Under the pieces are notes generated by a model, which was not told where the DNA came from, did no database searches, and saw nothing but the letters and a program-made list of their open reading frames with translations. Positions 13,864 to 32,000 of a stretch of DNA of 32,000 nt are shown one piece after another. The position numbers were made by a program, and so were the translations under genes. Where the stretch lies: contig CAZECW010000060.1 in assembly GCA_964510585.1 (NCBI GenBank), positions 30,001 to 62,000 of the forward strand, in the 5' to 3' direction. How positions within the stretch are numbered: the stretch's first letter is position 1; each line of letters opens with the position of its first letter. The DNA comes from an uncultured archaeon (lineage in GTDB: Archaea > Asgardarchaeota > Jordiarchaeia > Jordiarchaeales > Jordiarchaeaceae).

Positions 13864-13874
13864 CTACAAACACC

Positions 13875-15287: not shown

Positions 15288-15395
15288 TGTAATACCCTCT
15301 TGTGGGGAATAATTAGCGTAGAAAATTCTTTGCCCCTTTTAATTTTTTTCCCAATTTTATAATTAAAGTTCGCTTGTTTTATGATTATAACCAGT

Positions 15396-15443
15396 TTCGA
15401 CATTTATTTCGAATATTTAGCTTAAAATTCGAAATATGTTGAA
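15396..15443. promoter_or_regulatory. Imperfect inverted repeat in a divergent promoter, candidate operator
   Basis: Perfect 9-bp arms ATTTCGAAT (15406-15414) and ATTCGAAAT (15427-15435), plus outer arms TTCGACAT / ATGTTGAA with one mismatch. Confidence 0.45.
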
Positions 15444-15568
15444 CTAATCTCTGCAAATAACGATAATTTTTAATAAGCGCAAAACAGTTGAAACAGACCA
15501 CTTTATGCTCAAAAAATATCATCAATTATTCAAAAATACCTCTTGAGAGTGTTAGGAGCTGATAAGCG

Positions 15569-17086
15569 GTGACTATAGTAAACACCTCCAAAGATAAAAT
15601 ATTCGTTAAGGACAAATATTCAGGTGAAGTTATAGGTGAGTTGCCTGCGGACAACATGGATATTCTAAGAGAGAAAATCAAGAAAGTTTACAAACTTGAG
15701 GAAAAGATGCGAAATACCACTTTAGATGAGAGAATAGAGTTTATTAGAAGAGTTTCAAGAAGGATACGGTTGAAAAGACAAAAAATAAAGGAAACAATTG
15801 CAAGAGAAGGAGGACTCCCAATAAAATATGCCGATTGGGAAGTAGGTATGATATCTCAGGGCTACCTACACGCCGATTGGCGTGGAGAAATGATTGAGGA
15901 AAGAAAGATCCAAGCAATACGTGGAGAAAGCAGGGCCGCTTTTCACCCCTTAGGAACTTGCGGCTCAATGACTCCCAGAAACACCCCCTTCAGCCTTACC
16001 GGATGGGCAATAGGTGCCGCTTGGTTGACGGGTAATTCCCATGTTTTGAAGCCCTCAAGTGCGGTGCCACTCTCACCATTAATGCTCCTTGATCTTGCCC
16101 GGGATGTTGCGGATGACTTTCCAATCGAAGCTACCGAGATAACCGTTATGCCTGGTGATGAGGCAGCTACAGAATTTGTATCTAATCCTATGGTCAGCAT
16201 ATTCCTATTTTTCGGTAGTAGCCATGTCGGGAAACAGCTACTTATTGATTATGCAGAGTATCTTAAGAGCTGCACGCGTGCCCTGCCGTTTGCCGCGGGC
16301 TTTATGAATCAGGGCAAGTTCAAAAAATTCATTTTTGAAATGGCGGGAAACGATGCGGGAATAATTTTTGAGGATGTGGACATCGATAAAGCCGCCAACT
16401 TTGTAGTCAAAGCTGCACTCACAAATAGCGGTCAGCAATGCTTTAGCATGAAGAGGATACTAGTCCAAGACAGTATTTTCGACGATTTCCTAGATGCGAT
16501 GGTAAATTATACTTCAAAACTGAAAATGGGTAACCCACTAGACCCTACAGTAGACATTGGACCTCTAGGTTCGGAGAAAATAATGCTCATGATTGATTTT
16601 ATGGTGAAGGATGCCCTAAACAAGGGAGGCAAGCTTTTAATTGGAGGCGAACGCCAAGACCCCTTCTATCTACCTACAATAATAAAATTTGACAAAGAGC
16701 AGGTCATGGATCCCGACGAAAACAAGAGACCCTTCATGTGGGTTGAAGAAGCCTTCGGTCCCGCAAGAAGCGTTGTGCCCTTCCATAACGAGGAAGAAGC
16801 AGTGATGCTTGCTAATAGTACCACTTATGGTATGCGCGCTTCAATTTACTCTGAGGATCTAGACAAAGCAAACAGAGTTGCCCGAAAACTAGAAACCGCA
16901 GGGGTCTTCATAAACACAACACCAGGACAAGTAGACATATCATTCAAAATGGGCGGTGTTAAGGATTCGGGATTCCCACCAGGAGCACGCGACATAGTAA
17001 ATCACATGGTGAGAGAACAATTCATACATATTGAGGACGCCTTCCACGAAAAAGAAAAAGTGAAGGAGGAAGAAGAGGAGGAGTAA
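15569..17086 (+). CDS. NAD(P)-dependent aldehyde dehydrogenase (lactaldehyde dehydrogenase/GAPN-like clade)
   Basis: TPRNTP (catalytic Asn), LKPSS, FFGSSHVG, catalytic Glu in FEMAGND, catalytic Cys in SGQQCFS, EEAFGP and GGVKDSG. Confidence 0.92.
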   Translation: MTIVNTSKDKIFVKDKYSGEVIGELPADNMDILREKIKKVYKLEEKMRNTTLDERIEFIRRVSRRIRLKRQKIKETIAREGGLPIKYADWEVGMISQGYLHADWRGEMIEERKIQAIRGESRAAFHPLGTCGSMTPRNTPFSLTGWAIGAAWLTGNSHVLKPSSAVPLSPLMLLDLARDVADDFPIEATEITVMPGDEAATEFVSNPMVSIFLFFGSSHVGKQLLIDYAEYLKSCTRALPFAAGFMNQGKFKKFIFEMAGNDAGIIFEDVDIDKAANFVVKAALTNSGQQCFSMKRILVQDSIFDDFLDAMVNYTSKLKMGNPLDPTVDIGPLGSEKIMLMIDFMVKDALNKGGKLLIGGERQDPFYLPTIIKFDKEQVMDPDENKRPFMWVEEAFGPARSVVPFHNEEEAVMLANSTTYGMRASIYSEDLDKANRVARKLETAGVFINTTPGQVDISFKMGGVKDSGFPPGARDIVNHMVREQFIHIEDAFHEKEKVKEEEEEE

Positions 17087-17148: not shown

Positions 17149-17214
17149 AAGCCGGGAAAGAAACTTTTCTTCTCTTTTTCATTTACTCTTTCCCGGCTTC
17201 TGTTTCCTTTTTTT
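17149..17214 (+). terminator. 13-bp perfect stem plus T-tract between convergent genes
   Basis: AAGCCGGGAAAGA (17149-17161) / TCTTTCCCGGCTT (17187-17199), followed by TTTCCTTTTTTT. Confidence 0.6.
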
Positions 17215-17737
17215 AGGTAATGTGTCTTTTGAGTTCATCAATCGTTTTTTGAAATATTTGGAGTAATAGGTTCAATGTGTTCTCCGCATCTGTAAGTAGT
17301 TTTGTGAGATACTGTTTTTCTCTTGTTTCTTCATTATTTCTTGGGTTGAAGTGTTGCATAATTTTTTGGGCTTGTTTGATGCTTTCCTGAAGTTGCTTGT
17401 TGGTTTCTATCCATTTTAGTAGTCCTGCAATTATCATTTGGCTGAAGCTGGATTGGGATGAGTAGTAGGTTGTCCTATCCCCAGGTTTTTTGTGGCGTCT
17501 TATGGCGTTAAACTGTAGAAGAGTTTTAAGAGCTTGACTTACAGCGGCTAGACTGTAATTGGTTTTATCGCTAATCTGTTTCTGGGTGAGGGGTTCTGGG
17601 CTTAGTTGTATTGTGGCGAGAATTCTTCCAAGCATTGGGAAGCCGCCTCGTTCCTCCATTAACCGCTCCCAAGCCTGTGTGATTATTGATTTAGCAGATT
17701 GGAGTTCTTCTGCTTGCCGTATTGTTTTTTCGCTCAT
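17213..17737 (-). CDS. GbsR/MarR family transcriptional regulator
   Basis: G...MLGRI..T..LSPEPLTQKQI..T.YS.A.VSQALK.L wHTH with wing KKPGDR..YY, followed by a long helical C-terminus. Confidence 0.88.
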   Translation of the reverse strand: MSEKTIRQAEELQSAKSIITQAWERLMEERGGFPMLGRILATIQLSPEPLTQKQISDKTNYSLAAVSQALKTLLQFNAIRRHKKPGDRTTYYSSQSSFSQMIIAGLLKWIETNKQLQESIKQAQKIMQHFNPRNNEETREKQYLTKLLTDAENTLNLLLQIFQKTIDELKRHIT

Positions 17738-17824: not shown

Positions 17825-18475
17825 GTGCCTAAATTGAGGAACGTAAAATACTGGTTAAAGTTACCCATACGCATCATTTTCAAACCAAGAACTACAATGC
17901 AAGAACTTAAACAAAGTGAACCAATAAAAATTCCAATAATGTATATGCTCACCCTAGGTTTAATTACCTCTATAATGGCCGCTATTCTAACGCAGTATGG
18001 CATATCCTACGTTGATCCCAGAAATTGTGGAGGCTCAGCTCAAATTCTGGCAGGCTGGGTAATTGCTCACTACGGCTGTACATGGCCAACTCTAAGCCAA
18101 ATCTTAGGATACATATTACTAAACGAGTTTGGATACTTTATCCTCACAGTTGCCTTCATACCCTTTACCGCTCCGCTTGCCCGCTGGCTGACACTGAGAA
18201 ACACCGTAGACGCTCCAAAATCAGTCCGTTATTATGTTCTCAAATGTGTACAGGCAATATGCTACGGTATGACGCCAGCATCAATATTTGGGTGGATACC
18301 CAACCCAGTTAGCATAATAGGACTATGGGCCTCAGTGTGGCAGCTATACGCATTAAAAATCTTCTATGATTTTAACTGGAAAAAGGCAATAATAGTATTC
18401 GCGGCAGGTTTTCTGGGCGTATTATTCCTCCGGGAAATAGCATCACTACCCTGGATCCTTGGAGTTATACGCTGA
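17825..18475 (+). CDS. YIP1 family membrane protein
   Basis: IIFKPRTTMQEL N-terminal motif, about 5 TM segments, Y.MTP..IFGWIP...W..W...ALK pattern of archaeal Yip1 proteins. Confidence 0.72.
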   Translation: MPKLRNVKYWLKLPIRIIFKPRTTMQELKQSEPIKIPIMYMLTLGLITSIMAAILTQYGISYVDPRNCGGSAQILAGWVIAHYGCTWPTLSQILGYILLNEFGYFILTVAFIPFTAPLARWLTLRNTVDAPKSVRYYVLKCVQAICYGMTPASIFGWIPNPVSIIGLWASVWQLYALKIFYDFNWKKAIIVFAAGFLGVLFLREIASLPWILGVIR

Positions 18476-18644: not shown

Positions 18645-19568
18645 TTGGAGTACGATAAGGAGTTGACTTCTGAAATTAAAAAGTTCCTTCTTGATCAGGG
18701 AGCCGACCTCGTAGGTATCGCCCCTATCTCTAGATTTGAAGAGTGCCCTAAGGAAACCCACCCCCAACATTACATGCCGGATGCAACATGCGTGATATCC
18801 TTCGGAATGAAGATAATGAACGGGGTGTGCGATGTCTGGGGGGAGTATAATCAGCCTCACAAGAGTATTGCTCCATATCTGTTCTACGGATATGGATTGT
18901 TAAACTTTGACATGTCTCGGATAGGGAATCTCGTAGCAAAACGGTTGTTAGAATTCAGGGGCTACAAGTCCCTCATGTTTCCCCCAACTTGGATGATATC
19001 CCAGTATCGATTCATTGAGAGGGTTTTAGAGCCTTATGTTACCTTTTTGGCGGACTTTTCTCATCGCCACGCTGCTGTGGCCGCAGGGTTGGGAGAGTTT
19101 GGGTTTAATGGGTTAGTTTTGGTTCCAAAATTTGGTGCCCGTGTACGCTTTAACTCAATTATTACTAATGCCCCCCTAATGCCTGATCCCATGTATGATG
19201 GCCCTAAGCTTTGTCAGCCGGAGAAATGTGATTATAAGTGTGTTAGGGATTGTCCAACTGAGGCTTTAACTCTTGATGAAACCTTTACAGTGAGAATTGG
19301 CGATAAACAGTATGTGTATTCCAAGCCCAATAAGGTGAGGTGCATCATGGGCATATATGCTATGGTGAGAGGAACAGGGGCCAGGACGAGAAAAAGGTTA
19401 CCGCCCCGGGAAAAGAAGGAGATCACTATTGAGGATTTTGTGCAGGGACGCAAGGGTATTGGGGCATTTGACCAACTTTTTCTGGAGGATTGTCGGGGTC
19501 TAATTTGTGGAGACTTCTGCGGAAAGTGTCTTCACGGCTGCCCCGCACACAAATTCTACAAGGAGTAA
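18645..19568 (+). CDS. QueG/reductive-dehalogenase-like cobalamin-dependent 2x[4Fe-4S] protein
   Basis: GADLVGIAP, FSHRHAAVAAGLGEFG, P.FG.RVRF.SIIT, CQPEKCDYKCVRDCP and CGDFCGKCLHGCP motifs. Confidence 0.85.
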   Translation: MEYDKELTSEIKKFLLDQGADLVGIAPISRFEECPKETHPQHYMPDATCVISFGMKIMNGVCDVWGEYNQPHKSIAPYLFYGYGLLNFDMSRIGNLVAKRLLEFRGYKSLMFPPTWMISQYRFIERVLEPYVTFLADFSHRHAAVAAGLGEFGFNGLVLVPKFGARVRFNSIITNAPLMPDPMYDGPKLCQPEKCDYKCVRDCPTEALTLDETFTVRIGDKQYVYSKPNKVRCIMGIYAMVRGTGARTRKRLPPREKKEITIEDFVQGRKGIGAFDQLFLEDCRGLICGDFCGKCLHGCPAHKFYKE

Positions 19569-21416: not shown

Positions 21417-22463
21417 ATGATTAAAACCAAATTAACCGAAATGCTTGGAATAAAATATCCCATAATACAGGCTGGAATGGGGCCCCATAACACTACAAAT
21501 CTTGCGGCTGCCGTGGCAAATGCGGGTGGACTGGGACTTATATCTAGCATCGGGATGGGTTACTTGGCTTTTATGGATAAGCCCCTTTTTGGATTTACCG
21601 AAAAAACTCCTAGAGAACAGATGCTTCGCTCAATTGAAACTGTAAAAAACATGACCAAAAAAACTGGGGGTATATTCGGAATAAATGTGCCTGTGGCAGT
21701 CGAGTTTCAATCCATTTCGAAAGAACTCATAGAAGCAGGGCTTGAAGCTAGGGAAACCGATGAGGAAGTTAGAAGAAGAATGAAGGTCGTAGTAACCTCT
21801 GCAGGGAATCCAGAACCCTTTGTAGAGAGTATAAAAGAATCGGGAGCTTACCATTTTCATGTATGCCCCTCACCCTACCATGCGAAAAAAGTTGAAGGAT
21901 TTGGCACCGATGTGGTAATAGCCTCTGGCCATGAGGGTGGCGGTCACGTCGCACATGAACCAGTACATACAATGGTTCTACTTCCAGAAGTTGTAAAGAC
22001 TGTCAAAATCCCTGTAGTTGCAGCGGGAGGCATTTGTGATGGAGCAACACTTGCAGCTGCTTTGGCTCTGGGTGCAGTAGGTGTTCAGATGGGTACGCGT
22101 TTTATTGCAACCAAGGAGAGTGATTTCCATCAACCCTACAAGGATTATGTTGTGAATATTAAGGATGTTAGGGACACCGTTTTGGCTAAGGGTCTCTTTG
22201 GGAAAATTAGGTACATGAAGAATCCCGCCGCATTAAGACTTTTGCAGGCGGAGCAAAGGGGCGCATCAGAAACAGAGCTTTTCAATCTTGAAATGGTGGG
22301 ATTCGCAGCTATTGATAAAGGGGACATAGAGAACTCAGCTATGGCGGGGGGTGAAGTAGCAGGTAGAATTTCAGATATCCCTACAGTGAGGGAACTTATG
22401 GAGCGAATTGTTAATGAAGCAGAAGATATCATTAGAAACAGGTTACCAAAATTAATCGTCTAG
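21417..22463 (+). CDS. Nitronate monooxygenase / FabK-like FMN oxidoreductase
   Basis: LGIKYPIIQAGMG, V.NAGGLGLI, GHEGGGH, PVVAAGGI.DG and GVQMGTRFIATKES motifs. Confidence 0.9.
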   Translation: MIKTKLTEMLGIKYPIIQAGMGPHNTTNLAAAVANAGGLGLISSIGMGYLAFMDKPLFGFTEKTPREQMLRSIETVKNMTKKTGGIFGINVPVAVEFQSISKELIEAGLEARETDEEVRRRMKVVVTSAGNPEPFVESIKESGAYHFHVCPSPYHAKKVEGFGTDVVIASGHEGGGHVAHEPVHTMVLLPEVVKTVKIPVVAAGGICDGATLAAALALGAVGVQMGTRFIATKESDFHQPYKDYVVNIKDVRDTVLAKGLFGKIRYMKNPAALRLLQAEQRGASETELFNLEMVGFAAIDKGDIENSAMAGGEVAGRISDIPTVRELMERIVNEAEDIIRNRLPKLIV

Positions 22464-22665
22464 TCTGTTTATTTTTAATATGAGGAGGGAGTTTCGGGTA
22501 AAGCTTACTTGAAGGGGTGTTTACCGCACCCTCTTTGTTGGGCTGCCTTCATTCTTTATGTTTTTGTTTAAAGTAGCACTCTTTGGCTTCTTTGGTAAAA
22601 GGATCTGATTCTAAAAACTGTTATCCTCCAATGGAGTGTGTTTGTAGAAAGTCAAAAAAAGGAGT

Positions 22666-23526
22666 TTAGCTTTTTATATGTAGTATTTTTCTGGCTTCTT
22701 TGGGTGTTGCAATTTCTCTTCCTATGTCCTCGGCCATTCTTACGACTTTCTCTACAAATTGGGCATTGCTTTTTGCGAGTTCACCCTTTGAGATGTATAT
22801 GCTGTCCTCCATGCCCACGCGTACGTGTCCTCCTAGTACTATGGTAACTGCGGCTATGGGGAATGCGTATCTCCCCATTCCCGCCGCCTGCCAAGTGGAG
22901 TTTGGGGGGATGCTCTCCACTAGGTGTATTAGATTTTTGGGTGTGGGGAGAATGCATTGACCTGGAATTCCCATTACGAAGTTAAAGTGTAGGGGTTCTT
23001 TGAGTGCCCCAATTTCTTTTAGGAGCATGACGTTGTTTATGAAGCCAGTGTCGTAGATTTCGAGTTCAGGTTTTGTTCCGTTTTCAAGCATTGTTCGGGA
23101 TATGTACTCTAACTCGGAATAGTTTTGTTTTAAGACGAAGTCTCTTATCCATTTTCGTTCTTCAAAATCGTATCTTCCTGTTAGTCCTGCGCCCACGCTG
23201 AATGATGCTAATTCGGGTTTGAAGGTGGGTATTAGTTCCAGTCTCTTCTCTAAGGGTATTGTTGCCGCACCGCCAGTGGAAACGCATATGATGGCATCGC
23301 ACTTCTGTCTTATTCCTTCAATTATTTTTCCGAAAATCTTTACATCTGTGGTGGGTCTATTTTGTTCGTCTCTGGCATGAACATGTATAATTGAGGCGCC
23401 TGCCTCCCAGCATTCATAGGCCTGTTTAATTATTTCCTCCGGCTTCTCGGGAAGATTAGGGTTATCGGCTTTGGTGTGAAAGTTTCCAGTTAAGGCTACA
23501 CATATTATTAGCTTCTCCATCTTCAA
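22666..23526 (-). CDS. Beta-keto acid cleavage enzyme (BKACE, DUF849/Kce family)
   Basis: IICVALTG, NPNLP..PEEI, EAGASIIHVHARD (metal HxH), STGG, PELEIYD, GGHVRVGMED and REIATP.EAR motifs. Confidence 0.93.
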   Translation of the reverse strand: MKMEKLIICVALTGNFHTKADNPNLPEKPEEIIKQAYECWEAGASIIHVHARDEQNRPTTDVKIFGKIIEGIRQKCDAIICVSTGGAATIPLEKRLELIPTFKPELASFSVGAGLTGRYDFEERKWIRDFVLKQNYSELEYISRTMLENGTKPELEIYDTGFINNVMLLKEIGALKEPLHFNFVMGIPGQCILPTPKNLIHLVESIPPNSTWQAAGMGRYAFPIAAVTIVLGGHVRVGMEDSIYISKGELAKSNAQFVEKVVRMAEDIGREIATPKEARKILHIKS

Positions 23527-23542
23527 CCGCCCATTTTTTGTG

Positions 23543-24349
23543 CTATTTTGCTTTAAAGTCTGGTTTGCGTTTCTCTATAAAGGCTCTTATTCCTTCCTTT
23601 GCATCTTCGCTTTGCCTTAGGGGTTCTGCTAAGTACTGTTCCAAGAGGAGACCTTCTCTTAAGGGCATTTCCATACCTCGGAGAACCGCCTTCTTTATTG
23701 CCCTAACGGCTAGTGGGCCCTTCTCACATATTTCTTGGGCGGTTTCCATTGCGGTGGGCATTAGTTTTGGGAGGGGCACTACTTTGTTGACAAGGCCTAT
23801 TTGGAGCGCTTCTTGCGCGTTTATTCTTTTCGCCATCATCATCATTTCAAGGGCTTTGGCTATACCTATTATTCTGGGTAATCTTTGCGTTCCACCGGCT
23901 CCGGGTATTATTCCTAATTGTGCCTCTGTTAGGCCGAAAACCGCGTTTTCTGAAGCTATTCTGATGTCGCAGGCGAGTGCTATCTCCATTCCTCCAGCCA
24001 AACAATAACCATTTATTGCAGCAATTATGGGTTTCCATATCTCGAGGTTTCTTGTTATTCCTCCAAGTCCTGGTTCCTTTTCTGCAATTTCCAAGCGTTC
24101 AGCTGAACTGAACTTGGAATAGAATTCTCCAATTTTTCTCACATCAGCCCCAGCGCAGAAGGACTTGTCTCCTGCTCCAGTTATTATTGCCACCCAAAGA
24201 TTTGGATCGTCTCTGAAATCTATCCACGCTTTGTTTAGCTCTACGATAGCGTCTGGGTCTAGTGCGTTTCGAACTTCAGGGCGATTTATGGTTATTATGG
24301 CTATCCTATCCTTCTTTTCGTAAATTATACTCATGTTAAACACATCCAT
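23543..24349 (-). CDS. Enoyl-CoA hydratase (canonical crotonase, CaiD/EchA19-like)
   Basis: NRPEVRNAL, FCAGAD, both catalytic Glu present (GGMEI and GLTE), PGAGGTQRL and DAKEG..AF.EKRKP. Confidence 0.93.
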   Translation of the reverse strand: MDVFNMSIIYEKKDRIAIITINRPEVRNALDPDAIVELNKAWIDFRDDPNLWVAIITGAGDKSFCAGADVRKIGEFYSKFSSAERLEIAEKEPGLGGITRNLEIWKPIIAAINGYCLAGGMEIALACDIRIASENAVFGLTEAQLGIIPGAGGTQRLPRIIGIAKALEMMMMAKRINAQEALQIGLVNKVVPLPKLMPTAMETAQEICEKGPLAVRAIKKAVLRGMEMPLREGLLLEQYLAEPLRQSEDAKEGIRAFIEKRKPDFKAK

Positions 24350-24351
24350 CT

Positions 24352-24801
24352 TTAAATTGGCTTAAAATAATCAATGTCCAGAATATTTCCCTCTCGCTGA
24401 TCCTTGAATACTGCTTGCACACGCATACCGGGTTTAATCTTATCTAGGTCCACTTCTCCAAGGATGTGAACAATATTGGTGTCCGCTCCATCAAGTTTAA
24501 TGATGCCGTAGGCCAACGGTGGCTTCTTGGGCAGGTTGGGGCTGGAGCGATAAGTAACAGTGTAGGCAATCAAAGTGCCCTTGTCTCCAACCTCTACCCA
24601 TTCATTGGTCTCCGCCATACACTTCCCACAATATCTACGTGGAGGTACCAGAATTTGGCCGCATTTGGGACACTTAACTCCCATAATTCTCTTGTTATCC
24701 CTAAGCTCTATGAAGAACTTGCTAGCAACGCGCCCCACACTATAGCTGAAGGGCAAAACAATCCTTGTAGGTAGTATGACAGCGTCTTCCTTCTCACTCA
24801 T
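24352..24801 (-). CDS. DUF35 Zn-ribbon/OB-fold protein
   Basis: CPKC..PPR..CGKC Zn ribbon, GTL..YT, I.LDGADT.I.H and MRVQAVF. ATG start at 24801 (ORF track starts at 24813). Confidence 0.92.
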   Translation of the reverse strand: MSEKEDAVILPTRIVLPFSYSVGRVASKFFIELRDNKRIMGVKCPKCGQILVPPRRYCGKCMAETNEWVEVGDKGTLIAYTVTYRSSPNLPKKPPLAYGIIKLDGADTNIVHILGEVDLDKIKPGMRVQAVFKDQREGNILDIDYFKPI

Positions 24802-24809
24802 TTTTAGTC

Positions 24810-25304
24810 TCACTCCTCAATTGTTCTAAAGAAAATAATGTCCGTGATGTTTCCTTCAAGTTCTTCTCTCCAAACGGCTTGAACCCTCATTCCGATTCTC
24901 ATCTTGCTTAAATCATTCTCTTCCAGAAAGTAGTTGATTGTAGTATCTGCGCCGTCCAGTTGAATGAGAGCCATCCCGTAAGGCACTGGCCTAGGCTTCC
25001 CAGTTCTAGGGTCTACGAATGGCTGATAAACTACAGTGTAGGCTTTAACCGTCCCCTTATCGCTAATCTCAGACCACCCATCTATCTTCTTGTAACATTC
25101 GCCACAGATGAGGCGGGGGGGCAGATAAACCCGGCCGCAACTTGAACATTTGGCACCTAAAATCTTTCTCTCCTCTTTCCAAGCTCTATAAAATTTAGTA
25201 TAGTAACTACCTCCAGACCAGCGGTACTCAAGATTCATATTTATGGAAACCCTAAGAAGATCCTTCTCTTCTTTTACTTCTTCCTTACCTTCACCCTTAG
25301 ACAT
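24810..25304 (-). CDS. DUF35 Zn-ribbon/OB-fold protein (second paralog)
   Basis: CSSC..PPR..CGEC, GTV.AYT, I.LDGADT and MRVQAVW. Confidence 0.92.
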   Translation of the reverse strand: MSKGEGKEEVKEEKDLLRVSINMNLEYRWSGGSYYTKFYRAWKEERKILGAKCSSCGRVYLPPRLICGECYKKIDGWSEISDKGTVKAYTVVYQPFVDPRTGKPRPVPYGMALIQLDGADTTINYFLEENDLSKMRIGMRVQAVWREELEGNITDIIFFRTIEE

Positions 25305-25316
25305 ATTTTTTGCCTC

Positions 25317-26474
25317 CTATAAATGGCTTGATAAAACCATCATATCACACCAAGTGTAAACACCGTATCCGTGAACTAGGACTGTTTCAACATCAGGCAC
25401 CTGCCTCTTACCACCCTTTCCATGAATCTGCAACGCTCCCTCCGCAGCCCTGATAACTCCTGAAGCACCCACAGGATTTGTGGATAGAACTCCCCCGGAA
25501 GGGTTTACGGGGAGCTCACCGTCCATTGAGGTAACGCCCTCATCCACTAGTTTGCCAGCTTCCCCTTCCTTACAGAATCCCATAGCTTCGTACCATGCCA
25601 TCTCAGCATAAGAAACTGGCTCGTATATCTCAGCAACGTCGAATTGTTTCAGAGGGTTAGTTATGCCTAACTTTTTATAGATTATATTGCAGCACTCGCG
25701 GATGGTTCTTATGGTGGCCAATCTGTTTATGTGATCCCCTAAATAGGGGGTATCGTGTCTGGTAACCGCAGCTTTAACCCAAGCGGGGTTTTCACAAAGT
25801 TCTTTTGCCTTCTTCTCGGAAGCATAAATAATTGCGCAGGCGCCGTCGGACTGTGGACACATATCAAACAAATGAATGGGATAAGCTATGTACCTTGAGT
25901 TCAAAACTTTTTCAACGGTTAAATCGGGAATGTGAAGGTGGGCATAGGGATTGTTCAAAGCGTTCTTCCTAGCTTTAACAGCAACTTTGGCAGCTTGCTC
26001 CTGTGTAACTCCCCTAGAAGCCATATATTCTGTTATGGAAAGTGCGAAGTTTCCAGGCGCAGCGGAGGCCACTGGTCTATCCCAGAAGGGATCGGCAAGA
26101 GCCATACCGGCAAATGTGTGGCCGTCAGAGTGTTTTTCGAATCCCACAACCATCACAATATCAAAGAGCCCCGATGCAGTAGTGTAATATCCGGCTATGG
26201 CTGCAGAGGAGCCTGAAGTGCCCCCAGTAGCAATCTTTAACTGGTGTTTCAGGTAGGCGCCAGCCCCTTCCGCAACCCACATGTCTGGAAGAGCTCTACC
26301 CTCAAATAGCTCCATATTATCTGTTATCACCGCATCTATATCCTTTATCTCTAATTGAGCATCTTCTAGGGCTCTACTTGCAGCTTCGAATACCATTTCT
26401 GCTTGATTAGCATCATTCCTTTTACTTACATGCTTGGTTTGGCCCGTTCCAATAATGGCTACATTTCTCTTCAT
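25317..26474 (-). CDS. Thiolase-fold protein, Ltp3-like (probable aldolase subunit)
   Basis: IIGTGQTK, FEG, NPYAHL..PD.TVEKV, CPQSDGACA, AEIYEP and VNPSGGVLSTNPVGASG..R.AE motifs. No nucleophile Cys (ATGGTSG) and GHP His replaced by Asn. Confidence 0.85.
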   Translation of the reverse strand: MKRNVAIIGTGQTKHVSKRNDANQAEMVFEAASRALEDAQLEIKDIDAVITDNMELFEGRALPDMWVAEGAGAYLKHQLKIATGGTSGSSAAIAGYYTTASGLFDIVMVVGFEKHSDGHTFAGMALADPFWDRPVASAAPGNFALSITEYMASRGVTQEQAAKVAVKARKNALNNPYAHLHIPDLTVEKVLNSRYIAYPIHLFDMCPQSDGACAIIYASEKKAKELCENPAWVKAAVTRHDTPYLGDHINRLATIRTIRECCNIIYKKLGITNPLKQFDVAEIYEPVSYAEMAWYEAMGFCKEGEAGKLVDEGVTSMDGELPVNPSGGVLSTNPVGASGVIRAAEGALQIHGKGGKRQVPDVETVLVHGYGVYTWCDMMVLSSHL

Positions 26475-26493
26475 TTAAGGGACACCTCCTCAA

Positions 26494-27651
26494 TCATCTG
26501 CCCACAATAACCACGCAGTGCATTTGCCCACAGGGACCGGTAGTCCCATGTGCCAGCGCTGTTTCTACTTCAGGCACTTGGCGTTTACCTGCTTCACCCC
26601 AGCACTGCTCTACAGTTTCAACCAGTCTGGTTAAACCTGCCACGATGTAGGGGTTTCCTGCAAGCATACCGCCTGAGGTATTGACTGGTAGCTCTCCGTC
26701 CATTTCAGTTATTCCCTCATCTATGAGCCTTCCGGCGTCACCTCTTTTACAGAAGTCCAGTCCCTCTAACCATAAAAGTTCCTGATAGGAGAAGGGTTCT
26801 GAAATTTCTGCAACGTCAATCTCCTTCAAGGGCTTATTGATACCTGCAAGTTCATAGGCTCTCTTGGCAGCTATGGTTAATGCGGAACACTCGGTAAGGT
26901 CTCGGTCGCCGAGGTAGTGGGAGTCGTAGCAGTTGCCCATTCCCTTAATCCAGACTGGTTCTCTCCCCTTTTCCCTAGCTATTTCCTTAGCTCTCTTCTC
27001 CGATGCCAGAATCAAGGCACATGCACCATCCGAAACAGGAGCTGCTTCAAGGGATTTGATGGGGTAAGATAATATTTCTGATTGAAGAACGTCGTCCACA
27101 CTTATGTTCATCGGTTGGTAGGCGTAGGGATTATTAAACGCGTTTCTATGATTTTTAACTGAAACCTTAGCAAAATGCTCCTCAGACAAGCCGTATTTAT
27201 TCATGTACCAACTTGCCTGTAACCCTGCAGAAGAGAGATAATCTAACCCCAACATCTGCTGGTAAACAGGATCAAAAACCCAATTAGTAATATCGTAGTG
27301 AGTACCCCTGGAACCTAAACAGTGGGCTACAACCATGACAACGTCAAAGTCGCCCGATAGAATATTTAAAGCTGCATGGAAGGCGGCCAGAATGCCGTCG
27401 TCGGCAACTCTGGTTTCTGAACCCATAACGCCCCCAACCACTTCAGTGAGGAATGCGCCAGAAGCAGTGGCGCCGTCCCAGAGGTCTACAGAGGCGCTCA
27501 CAGTGTTTTCGATGTCCTTTATGTTTAGACCTGCATCCTCCAGAACCTTGGTTACAACCTCGTAAGCAACTTCGGGAATGGTTTTATTCAGCACTAAACC
27601 ATATTTTGATTGTGCTGTCCCAACAATACCCACTTTTTCTGGTAGACCCAT
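26494..27651 (-). CDS. Thiolase-fold protein, Ltp4-like (probable aldolase subunit)
   Basis: S.D..DG, E.RV..D, FDP....L..D..S.AGLQA, APVSDGACA, VNTSGG.LAGNP and AHGTTGP.GQ motifs. ATG start at 27651; the ORF-track start at 27750 overlaps the upstream gene. Confidence 0.82.
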   Translation of the reverse strand: MGLPEKVGIVGTAQSKYGLVLNKTIPEVAYEVVTKVLEDAGLNIKDIENTVSASVDLWDGATASGAFLTEVVGGVMGSETRVADDGILAAFHAALNILSGDFDVVMVVAHCLGSRGTHYDITNWVFDPVYQQMLGLDYLSSAGLQASWYMNKYGLSEEHFAKVSVKNHRNAFNNPYAYQPMNISVDDVLQSEILSYPIKSLEAAPVSDGACALILASEKRAKEIAREKGREPVWIKGMGNCYDSHYLGDRDLTECSALTIAAKRAYELAGINKPLKEIDVAEISEPFSYQELLWLEGLDFCKRGDAGRLIDEGITEMDGELPVNTSGGMLAGNPYIVAGLTRLVETVEQCWGEAGKRQVPEVETALAHGTTGPCGQMHCVVIVGR

Positions 27652-27685
27652 TCTTCTACACCTAGTAGTCACTTGTTTTGGGAAT

Positions 27686-28486
27686 TCATTTGTCCTTGAA
27701 TTCCGCCTTTCTTTTTTCCAAAAAGGCGGCCATTCCTTCCCTTGTATCAAAAGTTGTGAAATTTATTAGAACAGTGTTTATGGAGTAGTCTATTGCTGTG
27801 TCTAGGTCGGTTGTCATCCATTTGTGAATGATGTCCTTCTGTGTGGCGAACACCGTGTTGCTATACCTTGTAAGTGTGTCTACCCACCGCTGAACTTCTT
27901 TGTCCAGTTCTTCTGGTGGCACCACTGCATTAACTAGTCCCCGCCGCTCTGCTTTTTCAGCATCCCAAAATTTTCCTGTAAGAGCCAGTTCTCTTGCGCC
28001 CATTATGCCAATAGCTTGAACCAGAATTGCGGCTTCCACAATGGCTGGGATTCCAACCTTGATGTTGGGAAGGCCGAACTTGGAGCGGTTAGTGGCAATT
28101 ATGAAGTCGCATGAAATTGCTAGTTCAAGTCCCGCCCCTAAACAGTAACCGTCAACAGCGCATATGATGGGTCTTTCACAGGTTCTACAGGCGAGAAAGG
28201 TTTTGTGTAATTGCTTGGGAATCTCTCTTTGCTTCCAAACTTCGCTGGGAAGGCTTACAAAATCGATGTCTGTTCCGGCGCTGAAAGCCTTATCTGTGGT
28301 GGATTTGATGACTATTACCTTTACTTCATCATCTTTTTGAAACTCTTTCAGTGTTTCCTCTATTTCGACTAATAGGTCCATGTTGATGGCGTTCAATTTT
28401 TCGGGGCGATTCAGAAATATTCTACCTACCGGAGGATCTTTTTGGGTGATTATTGTTTTGAGTTTTTTCTCTTCTTTTACTACCAA
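27686..28486 (-). CDS. Crotonase-family protein, atypical (second catalytic Glu replaced by Asn)
   Basis: NRPEKLNAI, FSAGTD, LGAGLEL, then FGLPNIKVGIP instead of FGLPE. SD GGAGG upstream. Confidence 0.88.
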   Translation of the reverse strand: MVVKEEKKLKTIITQKDPPVGRIFLNRPEKLNAINMDLLVEIEETLKEFQKDDEVKVIVIKSTTDKAFSAGTDIDFVSLPSEVWKQREIPKQLHKTFLACRTCERPIICAVDGYCLGAGLELAISCDFIIATNRSKFGLPNIKVGIPAIVEAAILVQAIGIMGARELALTGKFWDAEKAERRGLVNAVVPPEELDKEVQRWVDTLTRYSNTVFATQKDIIHKWMTTDLDTAIDYSINTVLINFTTFDTREGMAAFLEKRKAEFKDK

Positions 28487-28622
28487 CGAAATATGCCTCC
28501 TTCTAGAGTTAGTTTGTGTAAAATATACATTCTAATATACTCTTAACTTTGGAATTATATGTCCTATTGGATATTGGAGTTTTGTATCCTTGCAATTTTG
28601 CCATAAAAATCTTTTGTGATTT

Positions 28623-30362
28623 TTATAGCACTCCGAGGAAGAATCGTTCAGGGTCAAAGATTCTCAAGAGGAATAATTCTTGTTCGGATGGCGGTTCAAT
28701 TTTTTCAAGAGGGTCTGCTAACTCAACCTTCCATCCAGTGTTCTGTATAATTTTTTGAATCATTTCACTCTCCGAAATTCCTCTTTGAGCATAGTATTTT
28801 TTCAGAACCATAATTCCGTGTTCTTTTTCGAAAACTGCATGTGAGGTTATGATTTTGCTAACCTTTTCCCCGGGACATGTTATGTAGGGCACCTTATCTA
28901 CAAGACGCTCTTTGTTTTGCACCATTATCACCATGGTCTCCCTAGCTCTAGCAACTATGTCGTTGGCGCCCCCACTGCCCACCAGTGTAACTCCATCAGT
29001 TCTTGTTGAGTTAATGTTTCCGTACTTGTCAACTTGTCCAGCAGACAGAATGGCCATAGACTTGGGATAGTTGACATTTATTCCAATAGAACCCACCAAA
29101 TCGGTTATCATTTTGCATGTGGGTATGTTTGCCATAGTAAATATGAATGGGTCTGTTGGTTTTGGAAGATATCCAAACATGCCCCACTCCACGAGTAGAT
29201 CTACCAGAATGTTCTCAGATCTTAGTGTGTGGGTTGCCAGCCATGCAGCTAAGTTTGCCATGCCGATTCCTGCAAGGAGAATCTTGTAATCTTTACTTTT
29301 TATCGTTTTAACTAGTTCTCTGGAAGCTGTGACGATGGCTCTTTCCTCTTCGGTAAAATTATTGAAACTAGGCATATTACGTATAGTGTGGGGAAGCAGC
29401 TGCTTCCAGGAGTCGGGGTTACCTCTCCCCCTAAGAATCATCAGTCTCTCGAAGCCTAGTTTGTTCAAGTAACCTTGAAAGTTTCCAACATCATAAATCC
29501 ACTCTTTTATCCACTTTTGCATAGTCTCCTCTTTTTTACTGGCATTATTTAATTCGATATTAAAGGGAATATCTTGGTAATAGCTTGAGCCGTCAGGAGC
29601 GTAGAAAGAGAAGGGGTGAGCTCCAAAAGGAGTCTCACAAACAGCTTTTACAAAGTGGCCGGGAATATCAACCATTGGAGCGTTTTTCCTAATGAAATCC
29701 GTTGAAACAATTTTCTCAACTGTTACTATTGCCCCATTACGGCTAGCATAAGCGCCGTAAGCTCTTTCACTCATAGGTAACCCTATTATAGTGTTCCCAT
29801 TTGGGTCGGCGCACCAAGCATGGAGTATAGAGAAGTCGGGCTTCACAGCCTTGAGTAAACCCACTTTTTCCCCACTTCCAAAGGGATCATCAATGACAAG
29901 GAAGCTATCTTTTAACTCCTTCTCCATAGTTGAACCTATCATAGACTTTGTGGGTATAAACTTGACATCCAGAGCTCCCGCTAATAGTCTTAGAACTATG
30001 GAAAGCATTGACCAGTGCTCCACTTCCATGCCCTTATCAATAGCTCTCTGAAAGGCCCTTGAAGGAGAGGGGGCTGGAAAAACATTACCCATATAGCTTG
30101 CTATCAGCTTTTTTATTAGATTCGATGCCGCGAGTATCTGAACTTGCAGGGCGCTTCCTAAACAAATTATTTCAAACTGCGGATTCTTGTCTCTGAACTG
30201 TCTACATATTTCGCTTATGGCACTAAATGAACTCCTATTAGTAGATATGTGTAAAAACATTTTAGGTCGTATGTATTTCTTTATTGCTTCTTCCAAGGGG
30301 AGAACTTTGCTCTCTCCTTCGTAGAGCTCTGTTTTGAAAATGTCTTCATACTCTTTAGACAA
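28623..30362 (-). CDS. Class I CoA-transferase, alpha and beta subunits fused (GctAB/CatIJ-like)
   Basis: Alpha part WS..S...RLLAGA..V.F.PT.S..GS and H...AD..GN. Beta part AGIG.ANLAA, LVEWG (catalytic Glu position), GQVDKYGNINST and GSGGAND. Confidence 0.88.
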   Translation of the reverse strand: MSKEYEDIFKTELYEGESKVLPLEEAIKKYIRPKMFLHISTNRSSFSAISEICRQFRDKNPQFEIICLGSALQVQILAASNLIKKLIASYMGNVFPAPSPSRAFQRAIDKGMEVEHWSMLSIVLRLLAGALDVKFIPTKSMIGSTMEKELKDSFLVIDDPFGSGEKVGLLKAVKPDFSILHAWCADPNGNTIIGLPMSERAYGAYASRNGAIVTVEKIVSTDFIRKNAPMVDIPGHFVKAVCETPFGAHPFSFYAPDGSSYYQDIPFNIELNNASKKEETMQKWIKEWIYDVGNFQGYLNKLGFERLMILRGRGNPDSWKQLLPHTIRNMPSFNNFTEEERAIVTASRELVKTIKSKDYKILLAGIGMANLAAWLATHTLRSENILVDLLVEWGMFGYLPKPTDPFIFTMANIPTCKMITDLVGSIGINVNYPKSMAILSAGQVDKYGNINSTRTDGVTLVGSGGANDIVARARETMVIMVQNKERLVDKVPYITCPGEKVSKIITSHAVFEKEHGIMVLKKYYAQRGISESEMIQKIIQNTGWKVELADPLEKIEPPSEQELFLLRIFDPERFFLGVL

Positions 30363-30437
30363 GTTTAAACCCTCATATCCGATTTTATTTGTCTTAACGA
30401 TTTCCTCATTTTATGGGAACCGAGATTAAATGCATAC

Positions 30438-31484
30438 CTAGATTTGAATCACAATTCTAATGGGGTTTCCCACCTTTTTCTCCAATCTTTCCAGTCCCTC
30501 ATTTACCTGTTCAAGTTTTAACACCTGACTAATAGACCGTGAAAGATCAAGCTTCTTCATTTTAATTAACTCCAATATTCGGTCAATCTCCTCCTTGTTG
30601 CTGCCAAACGAGCCCATAACCTGATCTTCGCAGTAAACGAATATGTAGGGTGAAACCAGTTCTATTTTTTCTGGCCCAATTCCCACAATGACCGCTCTTC
30701 CACCTTTTCGAATACTTTTAACTGCTCGGTCTATGGTAGTCGCCATTCCCACGAATTCTAAAGCCAAGTCCACACCCTTGCCCCCTGTGATTTCGCTGAT
30801 TCTTTTACCCGTTTTCTCCCTAGCAGAATTTATGGTGAAGTCAGCTCCCAGCATCTTGGACCTTTCAAGAATTTCATCAGAAACATCTATAGCAATAATT
30901 TTGGAGGCCCCAGCCAATTTAGCTATCTGTATTGCGTGAGAGCCTAAACCTCCACATCCAAAAATAGCTACGGTCTCACCTAACCTTAGGTTTCCACGGG
31001 TGATTATCGCGTGGTATGGAGTTGCGACAGCATCACCAATAATGGCGGCTTGTTCGAAGGGAACACCCTCTGGTATTTTTGTAAGACAATTTTTAGGTAT
31101 TTTCAGGTAATCTGCCAAGCCACCATCTACGTGAAGACCCAGTATTTGAGCATTTACACAAAGCGCTTCGCGACCACTTCTACACGCGTAGCATGCGCCA
31201 CACGTGATGGAGGAAATAACTAGAACTTTATCTCCAATCTTCCATCCTTCCACCCCTTCTCCTATTTCCGCGATTTCTCCAGCTATCTCGTGTCCCAGAG
31301 TTATTGGTGTTTTTGCGGGGGGAATGGTGCCGTCGCGGGCTATGTGCACATCTGTGCCACAGATCCCACAGGCCTTAACTTTTATCAGCACCTCTCCCGC
31401 CCCAATTTTGGGAATAGGTAATTTTTCGATAGTTAGGGGTTCGCCGGCTTTGTAGAATCTTGCGGCTCTCATAGTAGCTTCCAT
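30438..31484 (-). CDS. Zinc-dependent medium-chain alcohol dehydrogenase
   Basis: CGICGTD, GHE, structural Zn CGACYACRSG...C, and Rossmann GCGGLG. Confidence 0.93.
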   Translation of the reverse strand: MEATMRAARFYKAGEPLTIEKLPIPKIGAGEVLIKVKACGICGTDVHIARDGTIPPAKTPITLGHEIAGEIAEIGEGVEGWKIGDKVLVISSITCGACYACRSGREALCVNAQILGLHVDGGLADYLKIPKNCLTKIPEGVPFEQAAIIGDAVATPYHAIITRGNLRLGETVAIFGCGGLGSHAIQIAKLAGASKIIAIDVSDEILERSKMLGADFTINSAREKTGKRISEITGGKGVDLALEFVGMATTIDRAVKSIRKGGRAVIVGIGPEKIELVSPYIFVYCEDQVMGSFGSNKEEIDRILELIKMKKLDLSRSISQVLKLEQVNEGLERLEKKVGNPIRIVIQI

Positions 31485-31509
31485 TAGTCACTAGCACTCC
31501 TATACTTTT

Positions 31510-32000
31510 TTAAAGCTTGAACACCTTTATGGCATTATCTCTTAGGAGTTTTTTCTTTACTTCGTAGCTTAAACCTAGTTCGTCAATCTCTTTAAGGCAT
31601 CTCTTGAAGTCTAGAAGGGGATAATCAGTTCCCCAGAGGACTTTATCCTGCCCCCAGGTTGCCACGAACTGTTTGAATGATCCGGGCCAGAATTTGGGTG
31701 CACGAGCAGAGGTGTCTATATAAACATTTGGAAATTTCCACGCTAAAATCATCATTTCCTCATGCCAAGGCTGACCAAGATGTCCGCCAATTATTTTCAG
31801 CTCAGGGAAAAACAAAGCAACCTCATCCAAGTATATGGGTCGCGCACACTCTGATGGCAAAAGCGGTCCGGTGTGACCTATCTGGATGGTAACCGGTATG
31901 TCAAGCTCGACACATTTTGCATAGATAGGATAATAGTATTTGTGATTTGGAGGCAAACCCACAATGCCGTCCGCATACTGGTAAGGCTCCAACTTGATGG
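31510..32000 (-). CDS. Amidohydrolase_2 family metallo-hydrolase, 5' part outside the window
   Basis: YYPIYAKC.EL.IPV..Q.GHTGP..PSE..RP, FPELKI..GH.G.PW, PNVYIDTSA and KVLWGTDYP. The frame stays open to the window edge. Confidence 0.9.
   Translation of the reverse strand, partial: IKLEPYQYADGIVGLPPNHKYYYPIYAKCVELDIPVTIQIGHTGPLLPSECARPIYLDEVALFFPELKIIGGHLGQPWHEEMMILAWKFPNVYIDTSARAPKFWPGSFKQFVATWGQDKVLWGTDYPLLDFKRCLKEIDELGLSYEVKKKLLRDNAIKVFKL

Follow-up and report, generated by a model that had tools for sequence, protein, structure and literature searches.

An operon pairing Ltp3/Ltp4-type thiolase-fold proteins with two DUF35 proteins and a beta-keto acid cleavage enzyme in an Asgard archaeon: a likely bacterial acquisition with a candidate role in retro-aldol cleavage

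The window analyzed here is a 32,000-nucleotide stretch of DNA (positions 30001-62000 of contig C60 in a 3.78-Mb assembly, 96% complete) from an Asgard archaeon of Candidatus Jordarchaeia/Freyarchaeia, which carries, from position 22666 to beyond 32000, an operon of ten genes. At its core lie two thiolase-fold proteins devoid of the thiolase catalytic residues, ThlA and ThlB, which fall within the Ltp4 and Ltp3 clades, respectively, together with two DUF35 proteins. We propose, with moderate confidence, that the operon serves the O2-independent, coenzyme A (CoA)-dependent breakdown of an acid blocked at a substituted beta-carbon, that this proceeds via retro-aldol cleavage, and that the operon is a bacterial unit acquired horizontally. 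The genes of the operon and their convergent neighbor are as follows.

21417-22463, plus strand: NMO_a, an NMO/FabK-like flavin mononucleotide (FMN) oxidoreductase (Pfam NMO, 6e-53), convergent with the operon
22666-23526, minus strand: beta-keto acid cleavage enzyme, BKACE (Pfam BKACE, 5e-96)
23543-24349, minus strand: ECH1, a canonical crotonase (Pfam ECH_1, 2e-74)
24352-24813, minus strand: DUF35b, a Zn-ribbon plus OB-fold protein (Pfam zf-ChsH2, OB_ChsH2_C)
24810-25304, minus strand: DUF35a, a Zn-ribbon plus OB-fold protein (Pfam zf-ChsH2, OB_ChsH2_C)
25317-26474, minus strand: ThlB (P0001), an Ltp3-clade thiolase-fold protein
26494-27651, minus strand: ThlA (P0002 residues 34-418), an Ltp4-clade thiolase-fold protein
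27686-28486, minus strand: ECH2, an atypical crotonase (Pfam ECH_1, 3e-54)
28623-30362, minus strand: fused alpha-beta class I CoA-transferase of the glutaconate CoA-transferase type (1poi_A, 1poi_B)
30438-31484, minus strand: Zn-dependent medium-chain alcohol dehydrogenase, Zn-ADH (Pfam ADH_N, ADH_zinc_N)
31510 to beyond 32000, minus strand: amidohydrolase_2, Amh_a (Pfam Amidohydro_2; full gene L003:10511-11359, 282 amino acids)

Genes were called from the open reading frame listing together with Pfam scans, and curated families were scored with NCBIfam models. The ten co-oriented genes and the convergent NMO gene of the original prediction were all recovered where it had placed them, each with a strong Pfam match. 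Since the gaps between the minus-strand genes measure only -4 to 136 nucleotides, the ten are regarded as an operon, with the transcription order amidohydrolase_2, Zn-ADH, CoA-transferase, ECH2, ThlA, ThlB, DUF35a, DUF35b, ECH1, and BKACE; DUF35a and DUF35b overlap by 4 nucleotides, and both adjoin ThlB. The listed reading frame of ThlA opens at a TTG at 27750; however, the ATG at 27651 (residue 34) is most likely the true start because the homologs begin there.

The residues of the two thiolase-fold proteins were mapped by alignment to the solved thiolases 6esq and 7yvy, and subsequently to the 24 thiolase-fold paralogs of the genome and to orthologs. Thiolases of the SCP-x type possess a nucleophilic Cys, the Cys of an HDCF motif and the catalytic His of GHP, all of which are absent from both ThlA and ThlB. 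In ThlB, TGGTSG occupies the nucleophile site, Y284-E-P-V replaces HDCF, and T-N333-P (Asn333) replaces the His motif. ThlA has undergone a three-residue deletion in the nucleophile loop (VADDG-ILAA) and carries SEPF at the HDCF site and GNP at the His site. The Cys-bearing paralogs of the same genome contain ACASG or FCASG, HDCF, and GHP; nine other paralogs retain most or all of the thiolase residues, with all three motifs kept in seven. The alignment thus bears out the earlier suggestion that both folds are of the non-catalytic type, and a true thiolase pair is ruled out by the lost active-site residues along with the position of the proteins in the tree.

Among the NCBIfam models, ThlB scores best on NF006180 (PRK08313), at 393 bits against a cut-off of 514, the next model giving 273 bits, and ThlA attains 178 bits on NF005924 (PRK07937), whose cut-off is 419 bits. 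The identities of these models were set by searching actinobacterial genomes with NF005924 and annotating one region, in which a 354-residue gene product scores about 657 bits on NF005924 and the product of the adjoining gene, of 393 residues, scores 753 bits on NF006180. Both genes stand beside a tandem-DUF35 gene and a gene matching TIGR03559 ('F420_Rv3520c'), an arrangement that we take to be that of Mycobacterium tuberculosis Rv3520c-Rv3521-ltp4-ltp3; NF006180 therefore stands for Ltp3 and NF005924 for Ltp4. A gene located 22 kb away is marked by NF005892 and encodes YDHF, the published motif of Ltp2 (PMC12329534).

Phylogenies were computed in a quick version with 94 rows and a careful version with 63 rows under LG+C20 PMSF, with support given as UFBoot/SH-aLRT. 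ThlB, its orthologs, several paralogs of the host and the Ltp3 orthologs form one clade of 23 tips (100/98), while ThlA joins the Ltp4 orthologs in a clade of 21 tips (99/98). The two clades are sisters (75/94), with Ltp2 and the Cys-bearing thiolases outside, so that orthology of the pair to Ltp2 is ruled out. When the ThlB orthologs were forced together with the Cys-bearing paralogs, a grouping that was defined after inspection of the tree, the likelihood changed by -142 log units (p = 0.00016 in the approximately unbiased (AU) test). The trees that the original prediction had called for hence place ThlA and ThlB with Ltp4 and Ltp3, apart from the Cys-bearing thiolases. With ThlB 39-43% identical to Ltp3 and ThlA 27-34% identical to Ltp4, the two proteins are relatives within these clades and not orthologs by sequence; the proposed subfamily match stands as clade membership, but it does not extend to the curated cut-offs.

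In Ltp2 and Sal, the Tyr of YDHF (Tyr294) or YDCY (Tyr302) acts as the catalytic base, and this motif is the counterpart of HDCF (PMC12329534). Tyr284 of ThlB shares an alignment column with the Tyr of YDHF of the Ltp2 ortholog, and the whole Ltp3 clade shows Y-x-P at this site. All 12 ThlB orthologs compared, which come from different phyla and average 79% column identity, have Tyr284, and further invariant polar residues, including Thr86 and Asn333, line the former active site. The corresponding position of ThlA is occupied by Ser. We propose ThlB as the catalytic aldolase subunit with Tyr284 as its base, the retro-aldol chemistry being suggested by the conserved Tyr and by the activities of the relatives. 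Across phyla, identity amounts to 58-73% for ThlB and just 26-59% for ThlA, and the ThlA homologs vary in length from 305 to 388 residues. Owing to this weaker conservation and variable length, ThlA looks like a degenerate, non-catalytic partner, as Ltp4 also appears to be. An extremely unlikely alternative is that ThlA and ThlB are both catalytically inert and do no more than provide the other enzymes with a scaffold or lipid-binding carrier: neither protein retains a canonical thiolase residue, and their relatives are labeled 'lipid-transfer protein'. However, the column identity and the invariant polar residues of ThlB indicate a constraint far above the needs of a scaffold, and Ltp2 and Sal cannot do without the corresponding Tyr (PMC12329534).

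The ThlA-ThlB complex was predicted with an ipSAE of 0.95, compared with 0.00 for the best of three controls; this mark is reached by 58 of 80 solved complexes and by 2 of 110 mismatched pairs. The prediction runs agree in at least 94% of contacts, with a partner predicted local distance difference test (pLDDT) score of at least 91. The high mark may reflect the thiolase-fold dimers that have already been solved.

The two steroid retro-aldolases established by biochemistry, Ltp2-ChsH2(DUF35) (PDB 6ok1) and Sal-Shy(DUF35), likewise combine an SCP-x-type fold without the nucleophilic Cys with a DUF35 partner and have Tyr as the first residue of the HDCF-equivalent motif (PMC12329534). However, Ltp2 lies outside the Ltp3 and Ltp4 clades, Ltp2 and Sal are homodimers whereas a hetero-pair with one degenerate subunit is predicted here, and their hydratase is of the MaoC type, in contrast to a crotonase in the present operon. 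The top PDB matches are 6esq for ThlB (149 bits) and the acetyl-CoA acetyltransferase 7yvy for ThlA (152 bits), both of which are DUF35-associated SCP-x-type proteins; unlike ThlA and ThlB, they are true thiolases that have kept Cys, HDCF, and His.

The opposite direction of catalysis can also be envisaged, in which the complex would form a C-C bond by aldol- or Claisen-type condensation toward a branched acid or lipid, as a parallel to the archaeal thiolase/3-hydroxy-3-methylglutaryl-CoA (HMG-CoA) synthase/DUF35 complex or to PhlABC. Aldol reactions are reversible, which counts for such a role. DUF35-scaffolded complexes of the thiolase superfamily include biosynthetic ones (6esq and 5m3k among the PDB matches; PMC12960953). 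However, those complexes rely on the active-site Cys that is gone here, no HMG-CoA synthase-like partner is present, and the neighboring genes (acyl-CoA dehydrogenases, CoA ligases, thioesterases, and TetR regulators) constitute the usual catabolic set, so that we hold biosynthesis to be very unlikely.

The contig runs 7.7 kb past base 32000, and the cluster extends to its end with the following additional genes.

Beyond the window, plus strand: AMP-forming CoA ligase, 560 amino acids, divergent
L003:13687-14526, beyond the window: second amidohydrolase_2, 279 amino acids
Beyond the window: ECH3
L003:15485-16531, beyond the window: NMO_b, a second NMO and paralog of NMO_a
Beyond the window: ECH4
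L003:17520-18593, contig end: a 357-residue protein without a Pfam or NCBIfam match, which closes the co-oriented run

The original prediction had called for a look upstream of base 32000 for an acyl-CoA ligase, a dehydrogenase or a carboxylase. The ligase is present; neither an acyl-CoA dehydrogenase nor a carboxylase was found in the annotated 7.7 kb up to the contig end. The cluster also displays internal duplication, with two amidohydrolase_2 genes and two 348-residue NMO genes, the members of each pair straddling the divergent CoA ligase. The two amidohydrolase_2 genes share 77% DNA identity in the matched stretch, which covers the C-terminal-coding two-thirds, and their N-termini differ. 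Another copy of the gene for the 357-residue protein at the contig end resides elsewhere in the same genome.

None of the proteins in the cluster reaches the cut-off of any curated NCBIfam equivalog, which includes ECH2, ECH3, ECH4, Zn-ADH, NMO, and amidohydrolase_2. BKACE matches its Pfam family over its full length and scores best on Kce (NF052387), the 3-keto-5-aminohexanoate cleavage enzyme, at 307 bits against a cut-off of 382; unlike Kce, the BKACE of the window is not surrounded by lysine-fermentation genes. ECH1 retains both hydratase Glu residues. With the crotonase encoded in the actinobacterial Ltp3/4 region, ECH1 shares 37% identity; on the EchA19 model (NF051848), it attains 263 bits against a cut-off of 400, barely above other crotonase models. 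ECH2 has Asn in place of the second catalytic Glu, and ECH3 has neither Glu, carries Asp in IPDGGG and scores near PaaG-type isomerases. In both DUF35a and DUF35b, the four-Cys zinc ribbon (CxxC...CxxC) is intact and the OB fold is present. The CoA-transferase matches 1poi_A (5e-28) and 1poi_B (1e-10), and the Glu of its VEWG aligns with that of GctB VESG, presumably the catalytic Glu of the Gct beta subunit. Below the respective cut-offs, Zn-ADH scores 230 bits on Tdh and 177 bits on Had, and NMO_a scores 220 bits on the FabK equivalog, whose cut-off is 453. The amidohydrolase_2 family of the operon has a conserved AIDxW where HxH is usual, its nearest PDB relative being the uncharacterized protein 3irs, and the AMP ligase bears a likeness to long-chain fatty-acid ligases. 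As for domain fusions, none between DUF35 and BKACE was found among the best 150 BKACE representatives. In other organisms, BKACE is fused to an N-terminal GNAT domain (P0216, P0235, P0265, P0266, P0271, P0274), to a 4HBT thioesterase (P0248) or to a C-terminal class I/II aminotransferase (P0170, P0201).

The likeness to the actinobacterial Ltp3/Ltp4 locus, which the original prediction had emphasized, is real and comprises both the clade memberships and seven gene families common to the two regions. This locus, of the Rv3510c-Rv3523 type, with Ltp3, Ltp4, a tandem-DUF35 protein, EchA19, and FadD19, is among the closest known systems. In the one 6.2-Mb actinobacterial genome used for comparison (stretches L110, L111, and L124), the best match to the amidohydrolase_2 of the window, at 41-42% identity, lies 9 kb from ltp4, in agreement with the Amidohydrolase_2 gene (Rv3510c) that the original prediction cited as a neighbor of the ltp genes. 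It is followed by NMO, AMP ligase, an ECH1-like crotonase, P450, F420 oxidoreductase, tandem DUF35, ltp4, and ltp3. Both regions therefore contain tandem Cys-less thiolase-fold paralogs with two DUF35 domains, the Y-x-P motif at the HDCF site, and amidohydrolase_2, NMO, AMP ligase and an ECH1-like crotonase nearby. However, the two DUF35 domains are fused in the actinobacterium and encoded by separate genes here; BKACE, Zn-ADH, ECH2, ECH3, and the CoA-transferase were not found in L110, L111, and L124; and the P450 and F420 oxidoreductase have no counterpart in the archaeal cluster. The hosts differ as well, being an anaerobic Asgard archaeon or uncultured bacteria in the present case.

These parallels underlie the proposal that the operon uses hydration and a retro-aldol cut to remove the C24 branch of sterol side chains, or hopanoid, phytanyl or geranylgeranyl chains. 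According to Wilbrink 2012, as cited in PMC10398937, ltp3 and ltp4 are essential for the degradation of C24-branched sterol side chains. The clade positions of ThlB and ThlA, the seven common gene families and the resemblance of the AMP ligase to long-chain fatty-acid ligases agree with such a substrate. Against it, the identities of about 40% and 30%, below curated cut-offs, denote relatives and not orthologs, the conserved unit includes no sterol-specific gene (P450, ring enzymes), and four of its families (BKACE, Zn-ADH, ECH2, and ECH3) are among those missing from the actinobacterial stretches. Furthermore, some loci contain a periplasmic binding protein, thioesterases, and TetR regulators, which are typical of small-acid operons, and the spread over groundwater, sediment, and sponge-associated bacteria (the last a guess from labels) offers no link to sterols. 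A sterol or isoprenoid side chain is thus an unlikely substrate.

Conservation of the cluster as a unit, the absence of which had been named as grounds for abandoning the prediction, is pronounced. A scan of species-representative genomes yielded 80 related loci, every one from a metagenome-assembled genome, with no cultured carrier among them. Four belong to Jordarchaeia/Freyarchaeota and are 94-99% identical to the locus of the window, one belongs to Bathyarchaeia (80% identity), and the remainder are bacterial. The bacterial carriers include Thermodesulfobacteriota, Chloroflexota, Acidobacteriota, Rokubacteria/Methylomirabilota, Nitrospirota, Myxococcota, Alpha-, Beta-, and Gammaproteobacteria, and Actinomycetota (Acidimicrobiia, Solirubrobacterales, Gaiellales), so that uncultured bacteria from over 12 phyla, together with two archaeal lineages, share the core as a unit. 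Homologs that are 65-73% identical to ThlB occur in many bacterial assemblies. The usual order is ThlA-ThlB-DUF35a-DUF35b-ECH1-ECH2-BKACE-amidohydrolase_2-ECH3-ZnADH, and because the identical gene order recurs in dozens of unrelated genomes, the arrangement lies far beyond chance. Isolate labels of eight loci (Cca_, Bpl_, and OFTM; L050, L070, L058, L064, L071, L078, L090, L091) might point to sponge symbionts, a guess made from the labels alone.

Core genes were counted in the 36 non-Jordarchaeial loci that have at least 8 kb downstream of ThlB (35 bacterial and one titled 'uncultured bacterium'). ThlA, DUF35a, ECH2, and BKACE are each present in all 36, ECH1 and Zn-ADH each in 34, DUF35b in 33, and amidohydrolase_2 and ECH3 each in 32-33. 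The glutaconate-type CoA-transferase accompanies just nine of the 80 loci, and NMO just five, namely the four Jordarchaeial loci and a weak match (29%) in a bacterial metagenome-assembled genome. Acyl-CoA dehydrogenases are recurrent flanking genes (44/51 loci, often two), and other recurrent extras comprise TetR regulators, thioesterases, family III CoA-transferases, and a periplasmic binding protein; no oxygenase or carboxylase is found among the recurrent flanking families annotated. The archaeal copy has no acyl-CoA dehydrogenase in the cluster (16 are encoded elsewhere in the genome) and two NMO genes instead, and it adds the glutaconate-type CoA-transferase and the AMP ligase.

Based on these gene contents, a pathway can be outlined for the favored function, i.e., the retro-aldol breakdown of a beta-blocked acid. 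Either the AMP-forming ligase or the CoA-transferase of the glutaconate type would activate the acid. Desaturation would fall to acyl-CoA dehydrogenases in bacteria and probably to NMO-type flavoproteins in the archaeon. Hydration by ECH1 would then produce a beta-hydroxyacyl-CoA that cannot be, or is not, oxidized. The retro-aldol cut is postulated to be made by a heterodimer of ThlA and ThlB that carries both DUF35 proteins as caps, in which ThlB would be catalytic and Tyr284 the base. Subsequently, BKACE may convert the beta-keto-acid product and acetyl-CoA into a shorter acyl-CoA and acetoacetate. ECH2, ECH3, Zn-ADH, and amidohydrolase_2 would perform further steps, for which isomerization, alcohol/ketone interconversion, and hydrolysis or decarboxylation are candidates. 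The presence of BKACE in every locus with the pair argues for a free beta-keto acid as an intermediate, which in turn suggests a second carboxyl group on the substrate and an intermediate of the 3-substituted 3-hydroxyglutaryl-CoA type.

Several points weigh against this interpretation. ThlB is without the second catalytic residue of the solved aldolases, since Asn333 stands at the position of Ltp2 Tyr344 and Pro286 at that of Sal Cys304, and the structure prediction of the ThlA-ThlB complex does not discriminate the heterodimer from homodimers. A beta-keto-acid product requires a carboxymethyl-type substituent, for which no source is seen and no carboxylase is present. Additionally, three crotonases, Zn-ADH, and amidohydrolase_2 have no assigned step. 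To our knowledge, there is no in-vitro assay of any enzyme of the operon or of Ltp3/Ltp4, the latter being backed by genetic evidence only, and the cases of aldol cleavage by Cys-less thiolase folds demonstrated to date are confined to steroid side chains, with the homodimeric Ltp2 and Sal.

A serious rival, with a low yet appreciable probability, assumes an alicyclic substrate, a cyclohexane- or cyclohexene-carboxylate that bears a substituent and derives, for instance, from monoterpenes or naphthenic acids. In this pathway, a crotonase, Zn-ADH, and another crotonase would work in the manner of the Dch/Had/Oah trio that opens the ring in benzoyl-CoA degradation, after which the aldolase and BKACE would strip the branch, converting a 3-substituted glutaryl-CoA into acetyl-CoA and a beta-keto acid. 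A dicarboxylate of this kind would account for the free beta-keto acid without a carboxylase. ECH3 and Zn-ADH are neighbors in most loci, and one or both hydratase Glu residues are missing from ECH2 and ECH3, a trait of ring hydrolases and isomerases of the family; however, no crotonase reaches the cut-off of the ring-hydrolase model. Similarly, the 177 bits of Zn-ADH were obtained on the model for 6-hydroxycyclohex-1-ene-1-carbonyl-CoA dehydrogenase, but the enzyme scores higher on threonine and inosose dehydrogenase models, with no cut-off met. The conserved unit moreover contains neither a ring reductase nor another aromatic or alicyclic marker.

Returning to the retro-aldol breakdown of a beta-blocked acid, a functional analogy exists with the HMG-CoA lyase step of the Liu (leucine) and Atu (acyclic terpene) pathways, in which a 3-hydroxy-3-substituted acyl-CoA is cleaved past the beta-branch and a beta-keto compound is formed. 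The likeness is by function only: the lyase has an unrelated TIM-barrel fold and needs a biotin carboxylase, which is missing from the conserved unit, and the Liu and Atu pathways have no role for BKACE. A more ambitious version, which we consider improbable, is that the ten-gene unit constitutes a route of global distribution that strips isoprenoid-derived or comparable acids of their beta-alkyl branches, with no need for biotin, O2 or ATP-dependent carboxylation, and that it was captured from bacteria by the Asgard archaeon. Here, the heteromeric Cys-less aldolase, the atypical amidohydrolase_2, and BKACE would replace the carboxylase/HMG-CoA-lyase logic of Liu and Atu, with amidohydrolase_2 as a (de)carboxylase or as a hydratase on an unsaturated intermediate, and the archaeon might use the captured unit on isoprenoid lipid chains in anoxic sediment.

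The earlier description of an archaeal route was not sustained, as the operon is overwhelmingly bacterial and, in the Asgard sample, confined to a single genus. Among 201 Asgard genomes, an ortholog with at least 94% identity was found only in the genus of the window, in four of its five other genomes, while the other Asgard genomes of the sample contain only a paralog type with 47-55% identity. The broad bacterial spread, the cross-domain identity of 58-73% and the restriction to one Asgard genus make it likely that this genus acquired the operon from bacteria. The tree leaves the base of the ThlB ortholog clade unsettled and so does not prove the direction.

The assembly is rich in related genes, encoding 24 thiolase-fold proteins, 17 DUF35 proteins, 23 crotonases, 22 AMP ligases, 13 amidohydrolase_2 proteins, 10 NMO proteins, 6 BKACE, and 5 glutaconate-type CoA-transferases. 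Five pairs of an Ltp4-like and an Ltp3-like gene lie on contigs C27, C28, C38, C60, and C139, each flanked by two DUF35 genes; two thiolase-fold and two DUF35 genes therefore constitute a recurring four-gene module. The pair on C139 has two BKACE genes 4-6 kb upstream, and pairs of its type, about 53% identical to ThlB, occur widely in a different Asgard family. An odd thiolase-fold pair is found on C87 and lone Ltp3-like genes on C12 and C193. Two thiolase-fold matches (G000:C12:6660-7820 and G000:C139:19000-20145) contain one in-frame TGA each; stop-codon recoding is reported for Jordarchaeia (PMC9723677).

In the literature searched, no paper was found that describes the operon, that joins DUF35 with BKACE, that joins BKACE with all three of enoyl-CoA hydratase, amidohydrolase, and thiolase, or that joins DUF35 with all three of enoyl-CoA hydratase, amidohydrolase, and acyl-CoA dehydrogenase. 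The genome paper on Freyarchaeia refers to beta-oxidation in general terms only. New in the present work are the archaeal host, the evidence for transfer, the identification of the two NCBIfam models as those of Ltp3 and Ltp4, the two-clade tree with its AU test, the mapping of Tyr284, Asn333, and Pro286, the five pairs each with two DUF35 genes in one genome, and the seven-family actinobacterial overlap. The operon represents a ten-gene, BKACE-bearing version of the four-gene module formed by an Ltp3/Ltp4-type hetero-pair and two DUF35 genes. Should its substrate prove to be a common branched or alicyclic acid, it would supply a missing piece of anaerobic carbon turnover, and the transfer, if true, would clearly exemplify the movement of an entire catabolic operon from bacteria into an Asgard archaeon. 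ThlB, with its conserved Tyr284, offers a well-defined target for the first biochemistry of the Ltp3 clade.

The remainder of the window encodes archaeal housekeeping proteins (Nop5, fibrillarin, S8e, Trm1, and RNase HII). At the 90% identity level, proteins of the window cluster with proteins named Ca. Jordarchaeia, Freyarchaeota or Jordarchaeum, in agreement with an Asgard host. Four open reading frames of 216-314 codons (9919-10863, 11215-12135, 17825-18475, and 18645-19568) have no Pfam match. Positions 12241-17086 contain minus-strand genes for a flavin adenine dinucleotide (FAD)-linked oxidase (470 amino acids) and a CCG-domain Fe-S protein (540 amino acids) together with a divergent gene for an aldehyde dehydrogenase (505 amino acids), which is followed by a MarR-type regulator at 17213-17737; the genes at 12241-17086 could be a separate module for aldehyde or hydroxy-acid oxidation.

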